A DNA stretch of 64,000 nt from an uncultured Candidatus Bathyarchaeia archaeon (GTDB lineage Archaea > Thermoproteota > Bathyarchaeia > Bathyarchaeales > Bathycorpusculaceae). The notes under the pieces were generated by a model, which worked only from the letters and a program-made list of their open reading frames with translations, did no database searches and was not told where the DNA came from. Location of the stretch: positions 1,601-65,600 of the forward strand of contig CAZGNE010000006.1 in NCBI GenBank assembly GCA_964527165.1. The letters run 5' to 3'. The translations under genes and the position numbers were made by a program. Shown here piece after piece: positions 2,231-64,000 of the stretch. Position 1 is the first letter of the stretch. Every line of letters begins with the position of its first letter.

Positions 2231-2399
2231 AGGAACTCTTGAATGAATACAATAAAGTTTATTAGATAGCTGTGCAGTTTACGTTTCTAGTTTATAGTAT
2301 TTGAGATCATTTTTAGGTTGGAGGAAATTGGAGATTTGACGAAGCCCGCATTACATAACATTATCCAAACATGCTCGGGCGCCAGATTGCGGGAGTTGA

Positions 2400-5300
2400 T
2401 TGAAATTGGTTGAAGTCTTAAAGGAAGATACTCATCTTATGTTGAAGTCATTCTTTAGAACGAAAGGACTTGTCCGCCAACATCTAGACTCTTTCAACGA
2501 GTTTATAGATCATGGACTACAAGAAGTGATAGACGAAATCAGCGAAATACCAATAGAAGTCCCCGAAAACCCGTACAAAGTGAAGCTTGGTCAAATATGG
2601 ATAATTGATCCACAAACAAGAATAACCGGATCTTACGTGACCGAGGTAGACGGTACAAAACATGAGATCTACCCACTCGAAGCAAGACTTAGAAACCTAA
2701 CCTATGCAGCACCAATAGCACTTGAAATGACGCCAGTCATAGATGGCAGAGAACAAGATACAGAACTAGTTTACATAGGCAATATCCCAGTTATGCTTAA
2801 ATCAAAACTGTGCTTCCTCTCTCAACTCTCACGAGAAGAACTGATAGCCTGTGGAGAAGATCCCGACGATCCTGGCGGATATTTCGTAGTAAATGGCTCA
2901 GAACGTGCAATAGTCGCCATGGAAGATTTGGCTCCCAATCGTGTTATAGTGGACGTAGATGATAAAGGTGCCACACCTGTATATCAAGCTAAAATATTTT
3001 CCACAACAGTTGGCTTCAGAGCAAGAATAGAGTTAAAAATCAAGGCAGATGGAGCCATATACGTATCAATACCAGGCGTACCAACAGAGATCTCCTTTGT
3101 AGCTTTAATGCGTGCTCTAGGCTTGGAATCAGATAAGAATATTGCCGAAGCAGTTTCCCTTGAGAAAGAAATTCAAATGAAACTAAATCCTTCTTTTGAA
3201 AAAGCCTTAGGGATAGATACTCCAAAAGACGCAATCCTTTTCATCGGAAATCGTGTTGCTCACGGTCAAGTAGAAGAATACAGATTGCAGAAGGCCGAAA
3301 CTGCGATAGACAAGAACTTTTTACCCCACATTGGCAGAACCGCTCAGAATAGGGGAGACAAAGCCCTGTTCCTCGGTGAAATGGCCTGCAGAGCTGTAGA
3401 ACTAGAACTCGGAAGAAGAAAGCTTGACGACAAAGATCATTTTAAGAACAAACGATTGAGGCTTGGAGGTACATTGCTTGCGGATCTTTTCAGAGTGGCC
3501 TTCAGAAATCTTATCAGAGACATAAAATACCAGCTTGAACGGATAGGCGTGAAAGGTCCTATAATAACTGTTTCCGCCGCCGTACGACCGGGAATAATTA
3601 CTGAGCGATTTCAACACTCGATTGCTACAGGAAATTGGGGAAGAGGAAGAGTTGGCATAACTCAGCTTTTGGATAGGACAAACCATATTTCAACTCTTAG
3701 CCACTTGAGGCGACTTCAGTCGCCATTAAGCAGAAGCCAACCAAACTTCGAAGCAAGAGACTTACATGCTACCCATTGGGGGCGTCTATGCCCAAACGAG
3801 ACACCTGAAGGATCGAACTGTGGACTAGTTAAGAATTTGGCACTGTCCGCCTGTATTTCAGTTGGGGTAAATCCAGATAAGATAAAGCAGATGCTTACAG
3901 GCATGGGATTGATCCCTGTATACGAAGCAAACGAAATATTAAGGCTTTCAGGCACTAAAGTTTTCATAGACGGAAACATTGTTGGCTATTGTAACACTCC
4001 TGAAGAAATGACGAAAAGGTTTAGAGAAAGGCGCAGAAGAGGAGAAATTTCGACTGAGGTCAACATAGCCTATTTCTCAAAGACCCAAGGTGAAAGAGAA
4101 GAAATAGATGTCAACGCCGACGAAGGAAGAGTCAGACGACCCCTCATAATTGTCGAGAACGGTGCTTCAAAATTCCAGCCAGAACACATTGAAAAAATAG
4201 TTTCTATGGAATGGTCATGGGAAGACCTAGTCAAAAACGGTATCATAGAATACTTAGATGCTGAAGAAGAAGAAAACGCGTACATAGCATTGAAAACTGA
4301 GGAAATAACACTAAACCACACTCATTTAGAAATCGCGACATATACAATTTTTGGAATTTGCGCTTCAACAATTCCCTATGCCGAACACAACCAATCACCA
4401 CGTAATTCCTACCAAGCCGCAATGGCAAAACAAGCCTTAGGAGTTTATGCTACAAACTTTCAGCAACGGGTAGACTCCAGATCACACATTCTACATTATC
4501 CACAAGTGTCCATAGTTGAAACAGCTTTGATGGAGACAATGGGTTACAAGCTTCGCCCCTCTGGACAAAACTGTATAGTAGCAGTGCTCTCCTATGAAGG
4601 TTACAACATGGAGGATGCTATAGTCTTCAATAAAGCCTCGATAGAAAGAGGATTAGGACGCTCAACTTTCTATAGGATATACGAGGCTGAATGTCGTCAA
4701 TACTTAGGAGGATTGAAGGACAAATTCATCTTGCCAGAGCCTGGAACTCGGGGGTTCCGTGGAGAACAATATTATAGATTACTTGAACCTGATGGGATAA
4801 TCAGCTTGGAATCAAGCGTTACAGGAGGAGATGTTCTAATCGGCAGGATCAGTCCGCCGAGGTTTCTAGAAGAATACAAGGAATTCGAAGTAAAGGGACC
4901 GTCAATGCGTGACACATCTGTAGATATGCGACCTTCTGAAACGGGTATTGTCGATGGAATTTTCATAACAGAGTCAGGGCAGGGAAGTAAACTCGTAAAA
5001 GTGAGAGTTCGCGACCAACGTATTCCCGAGTTAGGCGACAAGTTTGCCTCTCGCCATGGGCAAAAAGGCGTCATAGGCTTAATTGTCCCGCAAGAAGACC
5101 TGCCATTTACAGAAGACGGCATAGTCCCAGACATAATAGTCAATCCTCATGCTATTCCTTCAAGAATGACGATTGGACAATTCATTGAATCATTGGCAGG
5201 AAAACTTGCTGCCATTAGAGGGAAGCCGGTTGATGGAACACCTTTCTCAAATGAAAGTTCTGAAGAAGTTAGAAAAGCTCTCATCAAGCTGGGCTTCAGC

Positions 5301-60057: not shown

Positions 60058-60492
60058 TTGGTGGTTAATTTGCGATCGGCTCAAAAAAAACACGTGGATA
60101 TCTTGGAAAAACTCTTCAACGAGTTTTCTGAGCAGCAACTGAAGAGAGGCTTGTCCATTCAAAAAGCTATTTGCGATCCAAACGCGGAGATCCTGGTTGC
60201 CGAAGTTGAGGGTGAGATTGTTGCGTTTCTTCATCAGGTCTTTTTTGAAGACCCACTTCACGCAGGCGTCAATTCTTTGATAACTAGCCTTTTTGTCGGC
60301 AGGGCTTATAGAAAGCGTGGCATCGCTGCAAGTCTGATCGCGAAGGCAATTGAGAACGCAAAAGCAAGAAAAGTGCAAGAAGTGCATGTGACTACTAGAG
60401 TGAATAACACTCAAGCTATCCGTTTGTACGAGAAACTTGGGTTTCACAAAGAAGGCGTACTCCTCGAAATGAACCCCCGGAACGCAAATTGA
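60058..60492 (+). CDS. GNAT-family N-acetyltransferase
   Basis: 144-aa ORF. RGIAASLIAKAIENAK (acetyl-CoA Q/RxxGxG/A-like loop) and NTQAIRLYEKLGF. Confidence 0.85.
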   Translation: MVVNLRSAQKKHVDILEKLFNEFSEQQLKRGLSIQKAICDPNAEILVAEVEGEIVAFLHQVFFEDPLHAGVNSLITSLFVGRAYRKRGIAASLIAKAIENAKARKVQEVHVTTRVNNTQAIRLYEKLGFHKEGVLLEMNPRNAN

Positions 60493-60555
60493 GAGCATAC
60501 ATGGTTTAGGACATAGAGAGAATTATAGCACTATAGGGTAATCGGAATCGAGTAT

Positions 60556-61030
60556 ACGTCCACATTGGGGAAAGCGTGGGCGGCTTGGGCTGTAAGTAGT
60601 AGAAGCTCCGAAATCACGAACCACTACTACTTTTAAGCTGAAACTGTCCAAGGGCTTCCCAGCGAGGCTTAGGGCTGGAAGCAGTCGACACTAAGACCTA
60701 TAGGACTACTACTATTGTGGGGAAAATGCCACAGCCATTCGCCGAAAAACGATCAATCGTGGGCTGAAAGAACAAAAAAAAGCCGCACACAAAGTTTTTT
60801 TCTTCTTCCAGCGTGAAAACTGCCCTACGAAGCGCAAAAGAAGCCCTCGTGAAGATCGAGCGATACCTGCAAACTCGTGGAAGCAGAATTCGAGTGTGTC
60901 ACAGAGTTGAAAGGCGCCAAAGTCTTCAAGAAACGCAAGTAACCGCACACATCCCCCAAAGTGCGGAGGGTTTATCCAGAACAATGTTGAAAGTGCGGGG
61001 GTGGGACCCCCACCCGAATTTCCCGGTAAA
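60556..61030. ncRNA. candidate structured non-coding RNA(s), identity unknown
   Basis: GC-enriched ORF-poor island. Hairpins: AAGTAGTAG...CTACTACTT, TGTGG-GGAAAATG-CCACA, CTTAG...GCTG-GAAG-CAGT...CTAAG, ACTCG-TGGAAGCAGAAT-TCGAGT, CCGCAC...GTGCGG and GGGTGGG-ACC-CCCACCC. Repeated TGGAAGCAG and CCGCACACA. Central A8-GCCGCACACAAAG-T7 tract. Ends can pair (GGGAAA..GTGGG with CCCAC..TTTCCC). Confidence 0.4.
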
Positions 61031-61062
61031 AAATCATATCAAATATGCTCGATGAAAGTTTC

Positions 61063-61605
61063 TCACAAGGCTTGAATGGTTTGTAAAATTGTAAGCACGC
61101 CAGCTTCTTTGGCTCTTCTTTGAAGGTATTTATTGTCCAATTTGTTTTCTTGTCTGGTCAACACGCTTTTTACGTCTTGTTCATCAATTACTCCTCTATC
61201 GGGTCTGGCTAGCTTGTTTACTATGAAATCCTCTGCGGAAACAATCCATGCCCAAATGTTCGTATCTAGCTGAACCTTCTGTCTTCTTCTTAAGGTTTCG
61301 TCATCAAAAATAATTCCATCAGGTCTCAACCATAGTTCAATTTCTATTTTCTCCTTTCGGTCGAGAATAACAATTAAAGGGTTTTCGGGAGAGGAGATGG
61401 TAGGTTCAAAATCCTTTGATTGTAGCAAATTTAGAAGTTGGTTTAATTCTTTGTCGGTTTTTATTGCTACTGCCAAGTCAATGTCAACCGTTGTTCGAAT
61501 TCTTCCATAGAAAGGAAGAGCATAGCCCCCAATTATCATGTAGGGAACATTGTTGTCTTCAAATAGTTTCAGAAGTCTCTGAAGAGATTTTAATATTGCT
61601 GGCAA
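61063..61605 (-). CDS. minimal nucleotidyltransferase-fold protein (MNT/AbiEii-like)
   Basis: 180-aa ORF. PYMIIGGYALPFYGRIRTTVDIDLAV is the GG...G..R.T.DxD signature of the Pol-beta NTase superfamily. Confidence 0.7.
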   Translation of the reverse strand: MPAILKSLQRLLKLFEDNNVPYMIIGGYALPFYGRIRTTVDIDLAVAIKTDKELNQLLNLLQSKDFEPTISSPENPLIVILDRKEKIEIELWLRPDGIIFDDETLRRRQKVQLDTNIWAWIVSAEDFIVNKLARPDRGVIDEQDVKSVLTRQENKLDNKYLQRRAKEAGVLTILQTIQAL

Positions 61606-62249: not shown

Positions 62250-62645
62250 TTATTCATCATACTCTACTATTCTGTTTATTCGTTTGGCAGTTTCAACCGC
62301 ATTCTTCGCTTCTTTAGGCAACGGAGCTATTCCATCAAACCCTGTTCTCTTGATGTAGGAGATCAACATTTTCCTCAGTTCCTCAGAATCCCAGCTGGCC
62401 ATTTTGTCTGGTGTATCTACGCCTGCATCATAATACAGTCTTGCTCTTACGCTTTTAATGGCTCCAAGTCTGCTTAAGTCAGACAACTTGACATATTCCA
62501 GAATCGATTCTAATGGTATCCCTGTTTTCTGGGACAGTTTTTTTCTGTCTTGTGAGGTTTTTCCTTTTTCGAGCATATGATTAACAGTTGTTATTCCTTC
62601 CTTTTCTAGCAGTCGCTTTGTATAGCTGGTCAAGGTTATACTCAC
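62250..62645 (-). CDS. helix-hairpin-helix protein (DUF4332-like)
   Basis: 131-aa ORF with two HhH-like repeats (EKEGITTVNHML; YDAGVDTPDKMA). Tentative. Confidence 0.5.
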   Translation of the reverse strand: MSITLTSYTKRLLEKEGITTVNHMLEKGKTSQDRKKLSQKTGIPLESILEYVKLSDLSRLGAIKSVRARLYYDAGVDTPDKMASWDSEELRKMLISYIKRTGFDGIAPLPKEAKNAVETAKRINRIVEYDE

Positions 62646-62699
62646 CGATCTTCTTTACAGAATCATTTACTCAAATTCTATTGACAGTGATGGTGAACA

Positions 62700-62905
62700 T
62701 AGGACTCTTAGCCTTCATTTTGGTGACCATGATAGTCCCGAACTGGATCTTGGAATTCAAGGCTGATAGAATTGCGGCAAAATTCGCAGGAAAAGAGAAC
62801 ATCAAATCAGCCTTGCTTAAATTTGTGAACAAAGAAGATTACGAAGAACCATCAGAGACACATCCATCAATAGCCGAAAGAGTAAAGCGCATTGACAAGG
62901 CATAG
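62700..62905 (+). pseudogene. C-terminal fragment of an M48/HtpX-like peptidase
   Basis: The end of the 62588..62905 ORF reads EFKADRIAAKFAGKENIKSALLKFVNKE...ETHPSIAERVKRI, a typical M48 C-terminus. No HExxH part exists. Its upstream part collides with the opposite-strand gene. Confidence 0.55.
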
Positions 62906-63009: not shown

Positions 63010-63669
63010 TTGTCCCTTGACCGATTCGTGACTTTCTACAACCTTGCGAAAGAAAATAACAGAAAAATCATAATTTCGAAAAGGCATGCGTACTTGCTTG
63101 AAGAATTGCAGAATGTGCCTGCGCTCCAAAAAGCTATTCCGGAAATCGATGATGAGAACATTCTCATCTACATCGATAGGAAAGATACTGGTCGGTTTGG
63201 AGAATCTGACTATGATAATTGGGAGCGAAAATTCTTAGAAATGGCTAACGCTGTTAAAGCAGACATGATACACGAAAATCAGGCAGATGCTCTTGTCTGC
63301 TTGACTTTTTTTGACGTAAATGAACTAATCGATATTGCGCCAAACGCTGGAAGCATCTATGTGCATTCAACCTCTGAACCGCATAACGAAGAACAGATAT
63401 TTGATGAACAAAGATTGAACAATTGGATTGACTTCTTTCGCTTGAAGAAGCATCACTTTCATTGTTCAGGGCATGCCAACGGAAAAGAGATTCGGGAAAT
63501 GATTCAAACCATCAATCCAAAAGAGCTAATGCCAATTCACACTAAACAACCTGAACTCTTTGAAAAAATGCATGATAACGTTAAGAAGCCCAAACTAGAA
63601 GATCCAAGCCCAGATGTGATATTTGCTTCAAGCTCACTTTCGTCAAGGACGTCTCGGAGTCTTTCTTGA
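63010..63669 (+). pseudogene. 5'-truncated beta-CASP / metallo-beta-lactamase RNase (RNase J / aCPSF2-like), C-terminal half only
   Basis: The 219-aa ORF contains the beta-CASP and final MBL motif HCSGHANGKEIREMIQTINPKELMPIHT. It lacks the N-terminal HxHxDH domain, and the upstream 100 nt is full of stops. Confidence 0.6.
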
Positions 63670-64000
63670 AGTTCTCCCCGCTCAGCTTCTCTGAAGATGT
63701 TAGGGTGCGTACGACCATGGAACGTCGTTTGGCACCCTCGGCTTTGACCCGGGGTCAAAGTTTGAAGGGGTGGCCTTAGCCTCTAAAGAGAACGCTTTGT
63801 TAACTGGCATGCTGGAGCTTCCAAAGGGCATAGCTAAAAAGATGGGGCAGAGGAGACAGCAGAGACGTTTCAGGCGATACAGAAAATGTCGGAGGAGACA
63901 GTGCAGATTCGACAATCGCAAGCGGAAGGACGGATGGATAGCTCCCTCGCAGAAGGCGAAGGTAGGGTTCAAACTGAAAATCATAGAGGAATTGAAGAAG
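63620..64000 (+). mobile_element. IscB/IsrB-like (OMEGA-family, IS200/IS605-associated) RNA-guided nuclease gene; 5' part only, N-terminus disrupted; runs off the window
   Basis: The frame open from 63704 to the window end reads GTLGFDPGSKFEGVALA (RuvC-I), then the Arg-rich bridge helix KKMGQRRQQRRFRRYRKCRRRQCRFDNRKRKDGWIAPS. No start codon lies upstream of the catalytic Asp. PLMP-like traces (FVKDVSESFLKF / SPRSASLKMLGCVRPWNVVW) lie in two other frames. Confidence 0.6.

Follow-up and report, generated by a model that had tools for sequence, protein, structure and literature searches.

Archaeal tyrosine-integrase modules of class II, the pNOB8-type or lambda-like ones, integrate into tRNA genes (reviewed in PMC8371274). 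In these modules the integrase gene ends a few tens of nucleotides (nt) from the core of the attachment (att) site, a tRNA 3' end; archaeal att sites are typically 40-50 bp long (PMC8371274). Where such elements have inserted in tandem in tRNA genes or have decayed -- as in the "gene capture" of She et al. (2001/2004, as cited in PMC8371274) and in the integrative mobile genetic elements of Thaumarchaeota (PMC6563490) -- leftover att copies and integrase fragments are found beside accessory genes in variable regions. A sequence of this general kind lies in the window studied here, a stretch of 64,000 nt (contig C6:1601-65600) from the 1.45-Mb, 60-contig, 93%-complete metagenome-assembled genome (MAG; G000) of an uncultured Bathyarchaeia archaeon. 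It is a hairpin-rich island of 475 nt, at 60556-61030, and most probably represents the eroded integration end of a mobile element that had once inserted next to a tRNA-Leu gene of this archaeon, rather than an RNA gene; the element was probably provirus-like. The island is ordinary genome debris, an eroded integration module and an object of an ordinary kind, and it most likely has no present-day function.

BLAST within the genome divides the island into separately matching pieces, which together form a mosaic of four parts: a GcrA-like gene fragment (about 60539-60876), an integrase tail (60850-60942), an att copy (60960-61006) and an arm (61007-61047). From left to right, these would represent the middle of a small GcrA/Myb-like helix-turn-helix (HTH) gene, with a hairpin segment present three times in tandem and every copy disabled by stops; then, beyond a deletion junction, the terminal ~30 codons of a tyrosine integrase of the lambda/pNOB8 style; then a 47-bp att-site copy, made up of the 3' end of tRNA-Leu(UAG) and its downstream flank; and finally the conserved arm that adjoins the core in elements of other Bathyarchaeia. 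Sequence comparison establishes the homologies of the first unit of the gene fragment, the integrase tail, the att copy and the arm, along with the three-copy distribution of the repeat described below. Tail, core and arm follow one another as in an attP site or as at the junction of two tandemly integrated elements, and such a junction is also where this order would be expected among the tandem and decayed elements mentioned above.

Integrase tail, attachment site and arm

The 3'-end remnant of the tyrosine integrase (60850..60942, + strand; ...DTCKLVEAEFECVTELKGAKVFKKRK-stop) has no start codon. The R..H..R..Y catalytic domain of PF00589 is absent from the island, so the integrase sequence is a remnant and not a gene. 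It was found by tblastn with the integrase of a relative (61.5% identity, E 3e-4 genome-wide) and matches positions 77-106 of a hidden Markov model (HMM) of the last 106 integrase residues (E 4e-7); positions 1-76 of this C-terminal profile have no match in any frame, and blastx likewise finds the tail alone. The DNA is 78% identical over 139 nt to genome G002 and 74-83% identical to the 3' ends of intact integrases beside tRNA-Leu. Integrases of this Bathyarchaeia group carry an extension of ~45 amino acids (aa) after the catalytic Tyr (..EAGFEYV..FRKRK), which is the surviving part in many remnants, and its family-specific form, ..CxLIEAGFEYV....K(I/L)FRKRK-stop, is present in the island. 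The integrase is intact in three integrated relatives (L011, L012, L016), as in the class II modules generally, and these full-length PF00589 proteins end ~50 nt from tRNA-Leu genes; the island differs from such modules in keeping just the last ~30 integrase codons. Elsewhere in the same genome, about ten integrase genes or fragments of the tail's family adjoin tRNAs, and a tRNA gene stands at the end of several contigs.

Just upstream of the tail in the window, after ...IERYLQT, the reading frame shifts into that of the integrase tail. This frame switch is a deletion junction; the deletion history of the locus is inferred. A junction of the same kind, independent of the one in the window, is found in the metagenomic open reading frame (ORF) P0046 (L144:224-646), a natural in-frame fusion between a GcrA-like gene (to ..ALKGLETEG) and an integrase C-terminus (HKSLNNTMLYTQL...EAGFEYVCDF). 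Modules composed of the hairpin and an integrase-tail pseudogene recur in two other genomes, G024 (three copies) and G346.

A second mobile-element region occupies C22:1-5300 of the same MAG, with the N-terminal fragment of a Cas4-like gene, a winged-HTH (wHTH) gene and an 864-aa primase/helicase-like protein (2292-4886); a 134-aa ORF on this contig (4829-5233) carries the integrase "tail" domain as its C-terminus on an N-terminus that is not that of an integrase.

The att-site copy (60960..61006, - strand) consists of the last 14 nt of tRNA-Leu(UAG) and 33 nt of its downstream flank (TCCCACCCCCGCAC on the - strand), the flank including a degenerate second copy of the tRNA end. It is 93.8% identical over 48 nt to C16:25322-25369, where the match runs into the acceptor/T-stem of the 3' half of a tRNA-Leu(TAG), on the opposite strand, at the end of the contig; the tRNA was identified by comparison with the tRNA-Leu(tag) gene that ARAGORN calls in the relative L011. 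Identity with a tRNA 3' end of the same genome is what a tRNA-derived att site should show. The end of contig C16 holds the sole other copy, with none further on contig C6.

The element-side arm (61007..61047, + strand; CCCCCACCCGAATTTCCCGGTAAAAAATCATATCAAATATGCTCG) is 83-92% identical to ~15 loci in other genera, and searching with an exact degenerate pattern returned 19 stretches, in Bathyarchaeia MAGs only. Arm and att core together form the GGGTGGG/CCCACCC palindrome. Next to the arm, on its far side in relatives, come the 3' end of tRNA-Gln and the native flank downstream of that gene, and the arm is often repeated every 1.8-3 kb between cargo genes; neither Rfam nor ARAGORN detected a tRNA or other RNA at the arm in these loci. 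One locus, L074, has the same order of tail, spacer, core and arm, again with a tail but no intact integrase. As the tRNA-Gln fragment next to the arm carries CCA, a retro-copied tRNA was considered as its origin and rejected: the native tRNA-Gln genes of relatives encode CCA.

Quasi-palindromic modules of ~230 nt, spaced 1.8-3 kb apart between cargo genes, were also seen in several Bathyarchaeia: in L079 (414, 3455, 5651), L066 (1021, 4029), L078 (4913, 6893) and L014/L027 of genome G018. Each is laid out as TTTACCGGTAAAC, a degenerate tRNA-Leu end, a 75-nt spacer, an inverted tRNA-Leu end, the arm, and a tRNA-Gln 3' end with CCA, and they look like cassette-like arrays of recombination scars. 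In the MAG itself, contigs C16 (end), C12 (start), C22 (end), C10 (end), C48 (end) and C57 (end) break in or at tRNA genes, mostly those of tRNA-Leu isoacceptors with the common 3' end GTGCGGGGGGTGGGA; this fits the presence of strain-variable integrated elements at those tRNAs.

A three-copy repeat from a dead GcrA-like gene

The left part of the island (60571..60876, + strand) is a dispersed repeat, the other copies of which lie at C20:618-830 (- strand) and C22:317-544 (+ strand), with blastn identities of 84-91%. What is shared is window 60571-60681 plus 60760-60876 (90% identity for the C20 copy, 84-88% for the C22 copy), the intervening 60682-60759 being missing from both. No copy was found in the 331 other genomes of the taxonomic family in a BLAST-level search of 332 genomes, and scans for its exact 20-mers through genome, viral and metagenome contig collections gave one chance match only. 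Decayed integrase sequence was considered as the source of the repeat and rejected; the tail alone matches.

The first of three units within it (60539..60661, + strand; ...SESSIRPHWGKRGRLGL-stop-VVEAPKSRTTTTFKLKLSKGFP, the stop being the TAA at 60593-60595) is a pseudogene fragment of a small HTH gene of the GcrA/Myb-like kind. Against the HMM of that family (alignment A4; see below), the unit -- KRGRLGL-stop-VVEAPKSRTTTTFKLKLSKGFP -- matches positions 34-71 with an E of 1.3e-5 in a small six-frame set; its paralogous copies score 1.5e-6 (C22; 1.2e-3 genome-wide) and 3.4e-5 (C20), and all three have the same TAA stop directly after RLGL. The succession typical of the family, an RLGL motif, an in-frame hairpin of the VVV..TTT type and then LxLPK, is found in unit 1, while the family's N-terminal KGKPWT...HTH and an intact ORF of ~150 aa are absent: the match starts at HMM position 34, with further stops upstream. 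The hairpin itself (60594..60632, + strand; inverted repeat I10) is of the type named GTA here, with AAGTAGTAG and CTACTACTT as its arms around a 21-nt loop containing AAATCAC, and it encodes VV...TTT. Its 9-bp stem (60594-60602 with 60624-60632) is 100% complementary. The covariance model R1, built from hairpin sites of the family, matches it with an E of 5.5e-9 and matches all three copies in the genome. No intact copy of an RLGL-ending gene was found in the MAG, nor was a large terminase.

Units 2 and 3 would appear to be further copies of the same segment. Unit 2 (60660..60759, + strand; QRGLGLEAVDTKTYRTTT), seemingly a diverged tandem RLGL-hairpin copy with its left arm decayed to AAGCAGTCG, is present only in the window copy and has at its borders the 11-nt direct repeats AGGGCTGGAAG and TGGGCTGAAAG (D1, D3; 82-89 nt spacing). 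Its loop, CACTAAGACCTATAGG, resembles hairpin loops in genomes G024 and G019, and it matches HMM positions 43-60 weakly (E 0.64). Unit 3 (60757..60866, + strand; inverted repeat I1) reads RGLK, followed by an A/T-type hairpin (KNKKK...FFSSS) and by what may be the start of the C-terminal helical domain, VKTALRSAKEALVKIERY; its HMM matches are weak but consistent in the three copies, that of the C20 copy (ARLGLKEQKKPHAKFFSSFSLETALGSAKEALVMIDRYLQT) covering positions 44-86 with an E of 0.34. Direct repeats (TGGGCTGTAAG, AGGGCTGGAAG and TGGGCTGAAAG at 60586, 60671 and 60760; ACTACTACT... at 60623 and 60705) delimit three units with a period of 85-89 nt, each of which begins (R/L)GL. The A8-N13-T7 tract at the centre of the island, to which the initial annotation had drawn attention, is indeed there, in the middle of an 18-nt inverted repeat of 89% complementarity (60763-60780 / 60795-60812). 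It may be understood as the family hairpin written in Lys/Phe codons, and its pairing of Lys/Phe and Glu/Ser would fit the rule that holds in the family.

Since the three copies share their lesions, they would have been spread or copied after the gene had died. The initial annotation had listed an element resembling a miniature inverted-repeat transposable element (MITE) among its options, and this came nearest to the truth, in that the repeat is dispersed in three copies and the island is debris of an integrative element. What does not hold is the classical MITE: the alignment of the three copies with their flanks, at 84-91% identity, contains no terminal inverted repeats (TIRs) or target-site duplications (TSDs). 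MITEs, as well as repetitive extragenic palindromic (REP) sequences and bacterial interspersed mosaic elements, are likewise short, hairpin-bearing, dispersed non-coding repeats of low copy number, and the hairpin motif here is patchy and multi-copy across genomes as well; the present repeat differs in having 1-10 copies rather than hundreds, in the lack of TIRs and TSDs, and in the coding origin of its hairpin. That coding origin also makes an end hairpin of an IS200/605 element, or of a REP with its associated transposase (RAYT), unnecessary, and this candidate was set aside. An integron attC site was considered too, and the R-box (GTTRRRY) is absent.

One possibility is that the hairpin segment, tail, att core and arm together make up a non-autonomous mini-element that still moves, having kept only the cis sites needed for a helper virus, namely attP and possibly a packaging signal in the gene fragment, which derives from a gene in terminase position. 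Three dispersed copies with the same inactivating lesions, adjoining tRNA or att sequences, would suit such an element, as would the contiguous attP-like order of the window copy, the tandem multiplication of the hairpin segment and the multi-copy state of similar hairpin-and-tail modules in G024. It is nevertheless an unlikely explanation. No copy is flanked by direct att repeats, TIRs or TSDs; the copies are just 84-91% identical, and the one on C22 has no tail; the MAG lacks a same-subtype helper integrase beside tRNA-Leu, as well as a terminase and an intact version of the small gene; and the 331 related genomes lack the repeat.

An eroded integration end remains the preferred account of the island, and several findings weigh against it. 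Compared with the tandem and decayed elements described previously, contig C6 has no second att copy to bound an element, the matching tRNA-Leu being on another contig, and among the debris is a three-copy repeat joined to integrase tails with two tRNA specificities: one copy stands beside tRNA-Val with a different, frameshifted integrase tail. The spread of a dead module of 230-310 nt to three loci has no explanation under this account. The window's unit 1 scores 15 bits and did not pass E 0.01 genome-wide, so that its assignment leans on the paralogues and on the DNA-level model; units 2 and 3 depend on weak HMM scores (E 0.3-1.6) and on the periodic direct repeats. Lastly, the fold of the island remains significantly better than that of shuffled sequence.

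The hairpin within the GcrA-like family

A k-mer-based protein search with an intact-looking ORF of genome G034 gave one homologue, and an exhaustive phmmer search with that homologue yielded 126 representative proteins (P0002-P0127), typically of 115-160 aa. Their alignment (A4) shows an N-terminal HTH (KGKPWT..E..L..G.S..IA..LGK...V..K..RLGL), a linker (EVVV-x6-TTTS) and a helical C-terminal domain (LPxELPSIEEALKxLxAAL...). Of 28 members, 21 match the Pfam family PF07750 (GcrA-like), while PHROG 323 ("transcriptional regulator, D5-like") matches over the full length (E 1e-11). With GcrA and PHROG 323 the family shares the HTH pattern W..E..L..G.S...IA..LG.....V..K..RLGL at the N-terminus; it differs in its size of ~150 aa, its own C-terminal helical domain and its home in archaeal mobile genetic elements (MGEs), and what the window contains is only a dead fragment from the middle of the gene, lacking the HTH. 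Three independent members have the large terminase directly downstream, which puts the gene in the position of a small terminase (PF03237 at E 2e-16 in L142 and L143; the downstream ORFs of L152 and L150 are homologous, with E of 9e-20 and 9e-19), while another member lies within a plasmid-like element that has an integrase and ParA.

Of 151 genomes of the taxonomic family, 17 contain the exact 9-bp hairpin pattern (0 for a reversed control), and the covariance model, R1, made from an alignment (A3) of 16 hairpin sites, places the hairpin in 30 of the 151, at up to about ten sites per genome. Its 5' flank is in frame (..VRQKIRRLGL-E-V-V-V) and differs between genera at synonymous third positions, which is a coding signature. 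In the coding sequence (CDS) of the family, it falls in the stretch between the RLGL and LPxELPS motifs. Among 49 short members, the residues after RLGL and before LxLP are Val/Thr in 32, Glu/Ser in four, Lys/Phe in one and Ile/Ile in one, with few mixed pairs, exactly the pairing expected of complementary DNA arms that are read one nucleotide out of phase. In the DNA of five members, the stems are 8-15 bp long and differ in sequence (GUA, GAA, GUU) at the same codon position. The loci noted for the family, which belongs to Bathyarchaeia viruses and MGEs, are L142:241-696, L145:5001-5450, L148:5001-5453, L150:376-855 and L151:67-345. As the stem varies (GTA/TAC, GAA/TTC, GTT/AAC, AAA/TTT), the flanking residues change in pairs (Val-Thr, Glu-Ser, Lys-Phe, Ile-Ile). 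Within GTA-type stems Val is always GTA and Thr always ACT, with the neighbouring Arg and Leu codons varying freely. All this points to selection on the nucleic-acid structure; a palindrome maintained by serving as its own template is a possible alternative.

An origin of the hairpin as a split or permuted tRNA, or as a mini-intron of the bulge-helix-bulge type, was rejected, since the helix is continuous and without bulges, is mostly a multiple of three in length, and is translated in the intact genes.

In headful-packaging phages the pac site lies within the gene for the small terminase (TerS), as in gene 3 of P22 and gene 1 of SPP1. The GcrA-like genes resemble these in that they encode a small protein with an N-terminal HTH just ahead of the large terminase, and in that a conserved nucleic-acid feature is found inside the CDS. 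The present family differs in carrying Pfam GcrA-like and PHROGs transcriptional-regulator labels, with no evidence that makes it a terminase subunit, and in having some members in plasmid-like elements that lack a terminase. Long perfect hairpins are not known among pac sites. The position of the gene, that of a small terminase, makes a packaging or recombination signal the most attractive guess. There is perhaps somewhat less than an even chance that the hairpin is a selected cis-acting signal -- recognised as folded DNA in packaging (pac-like) or in recombination, or acting in the mRNA to control the expression of the terminase or integrase downstream -- and also a deletion hot spot that has repeatedly fused the gene to integrase tails, in which case the hairpins of the island would be its relics. 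A report on Bathyarchaeia viruses (PMC10848311) mentions neither a small terminase nor an intragenic hairpin. No description of the latter was found in the literature, and it is put forward as a candidate cis-acting site and as a lead outside the window; should it turn out to act in packaging or recombination, no cis-acting site would have been defined earlier for the tailed viruses of this uncultured archaeal class.

RNA and terminator readings, and the surroundings of the island

The initial annotation placed the island between a GNAT gene and a nucleotidyltransferase (NTase) gene, and both identities are borne out: a GNAT gene at 60058-60492 (+ strand; PF00583, E 2e-18) and a DUF6036/DUF2204 nucleotidyltransferase gene at 61063-61605 (- strand) converge upon it. 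What was observed in the island itself is likewise confirmed. All six frames are interrupted by stop codons, and the hairpins and repeated motifs are all found at the coordinates originally given or no more than a few bases away: besides the 9-bp stem and GGGTGGG/CCCACCC, the hairpins TGTGG/CCACA, CTTAG/CTAAG (with CTG-GAAG-CAG), ACTCG/CGAGT and CCGCAC/GTGCGG, and, twice each, the motifs TGGAAGCAG (60676, 60878), CCGCACACA, AAAGTGCGG[AG]GG (60958, 60990) and ACTACTAC. The enrichment in GC exists and is modest (0.46-0.50, with a genome mean of 0.43 and flanks of 0.36-0.46), and the relation of the two ends as imperfect inverted repeats is weaker than first described, the best long-range pair being 78% complementary over 18 nt. 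The interpretation drawn from these features is only partly supported. A comparison of synteny based on the GNAT gene was of little help, this gene having no close orthologues and the locus L007 not being syntenic.

The fold of the island is what speaks most directly for one or two structured non-coding RNAs (ncRNAs), convergent and ending at the central A8/T7 tract, as had been proposed. Against dinucleotide shuffles, the folding z-score of the 475 nt is -2.72 on the + strand and -3.53 on the - strand, with 0 of 100 shuffles folding as well; there are several local hairpins, and the GTA-type hairpin is kept across genera with covarying stem extensions. That hairpin, however, is part of a family of protein-coding genes, whose intact members translate it. 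Scanning the whole window with cmscan against Rfam at the gathering score gave two tRNAs elsewhere and nothing in the island, where even at E<=10, with HEARO included, just two chance-level matches appeared, outside the island or at its edges. RNAalifold on the three genomic copies gave a positive covariation term (+1.0) and several broken pairs, the 9-bp stem being disrupted by A-C mismatches in two copies, so that the covariation looked for among the copies is not seen; nor is there any conserved promoter-like sequence common to them. An orthologue of the island is likewise missing from the 331 related genomes. The right third of the island is integrase tail and att debris, and the island aligns to decayed protein-coding genes twice, in the integrase tail and in the GcrA-like gene fragment, an outcome that the initial annotation had itself named as refuting. 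An ncRNA is therefore very improbable here.

The proposal that the neighbouring IscB-like element has its orphan guide or scaffold (omega) RNA here fares worse still and is effectively refuted, its probability being close to nil. The neighbour is real: an ORF with an RRXRR domain (PF14239, E 7e-20) begins near 63770 and confirms an IscB/IsrB-like gene at the edge of the window (63770-64000, continuing to the end of contig C6). It is separated from the island by 2.7 kb and by five genes or gene fragments on both strands; the island has no match to HEARO or omega-RNA, and the other two copies of the repeat are not beside IscB or TnpB genes.

Oligo-T is a termination signal for archaeal RNA polymerase. 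Three runs in the island have the expected form of at least five T downstream of a gene on the transcribed strand and could act in this way: T7 at 60795-60801 (+ strand), T8 at 60773-60780 (- strand) and T6 at 61028-61033 (- strand), the last being the A6 run of the arm, which lies 30 nt downstream of the minus-strand NTase gene. Judged by this oligo-T rule, the runs probably end transcription of both convergent neighbours as an incidental present-day role, so that a bidirectional terminator is plausible as a by-product. Retention of the island because it terminates transcription of the convergent GNAT and NTase/wHTH genes in both directions is a different matter and rather doubtful. The T7 and T8 runs do lie between two convergent genes, with the T6 run of the arm 30 nt past the NTase stop, and the repeat in C20 and C22 also follows the 3' end of a + strand ORF; but about 10 nt would suffice where the island has 480, and descent from the family hairpin in its Lys/Phe codon form already explains the tract.

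With the island taken as an eroded integration end, the region is properly annotated as mobile-element debris (pseudogene fragment, integrase tail and att remnant) and not as a candidate ncRNA, and 57.7-64 kb of the window is thereby marked as a variable, MGE-derived region. Bathyarchaeia chromosomes contain many conserved scars of an arm and a tRNA end, together with integrase tails, that can be mistaken by eye for hairpin-rich RNA genes.

Other incomplete genes are found nearby: 62588-62905 is a C-terminal fragment of an M48 peptidase, and 63010-63669 comprises only the RMMBL end of a beta-CASP RNase. Elsewhere in the MAG, contigs C36, C40 and C43 have a GC content of 62-63%, as against 43% for the rest, and are probably binning contamination. 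At C2:57664-57759 (- strand), ARAGORN reports a 96-nt "tRNA-???" with a four-base anticodon (cata), probably a mis-modelled tRNA that contains an intron; the MAG yielded just 22 tRNA calls in total, which makes introns likely in many of its tRNA genes.

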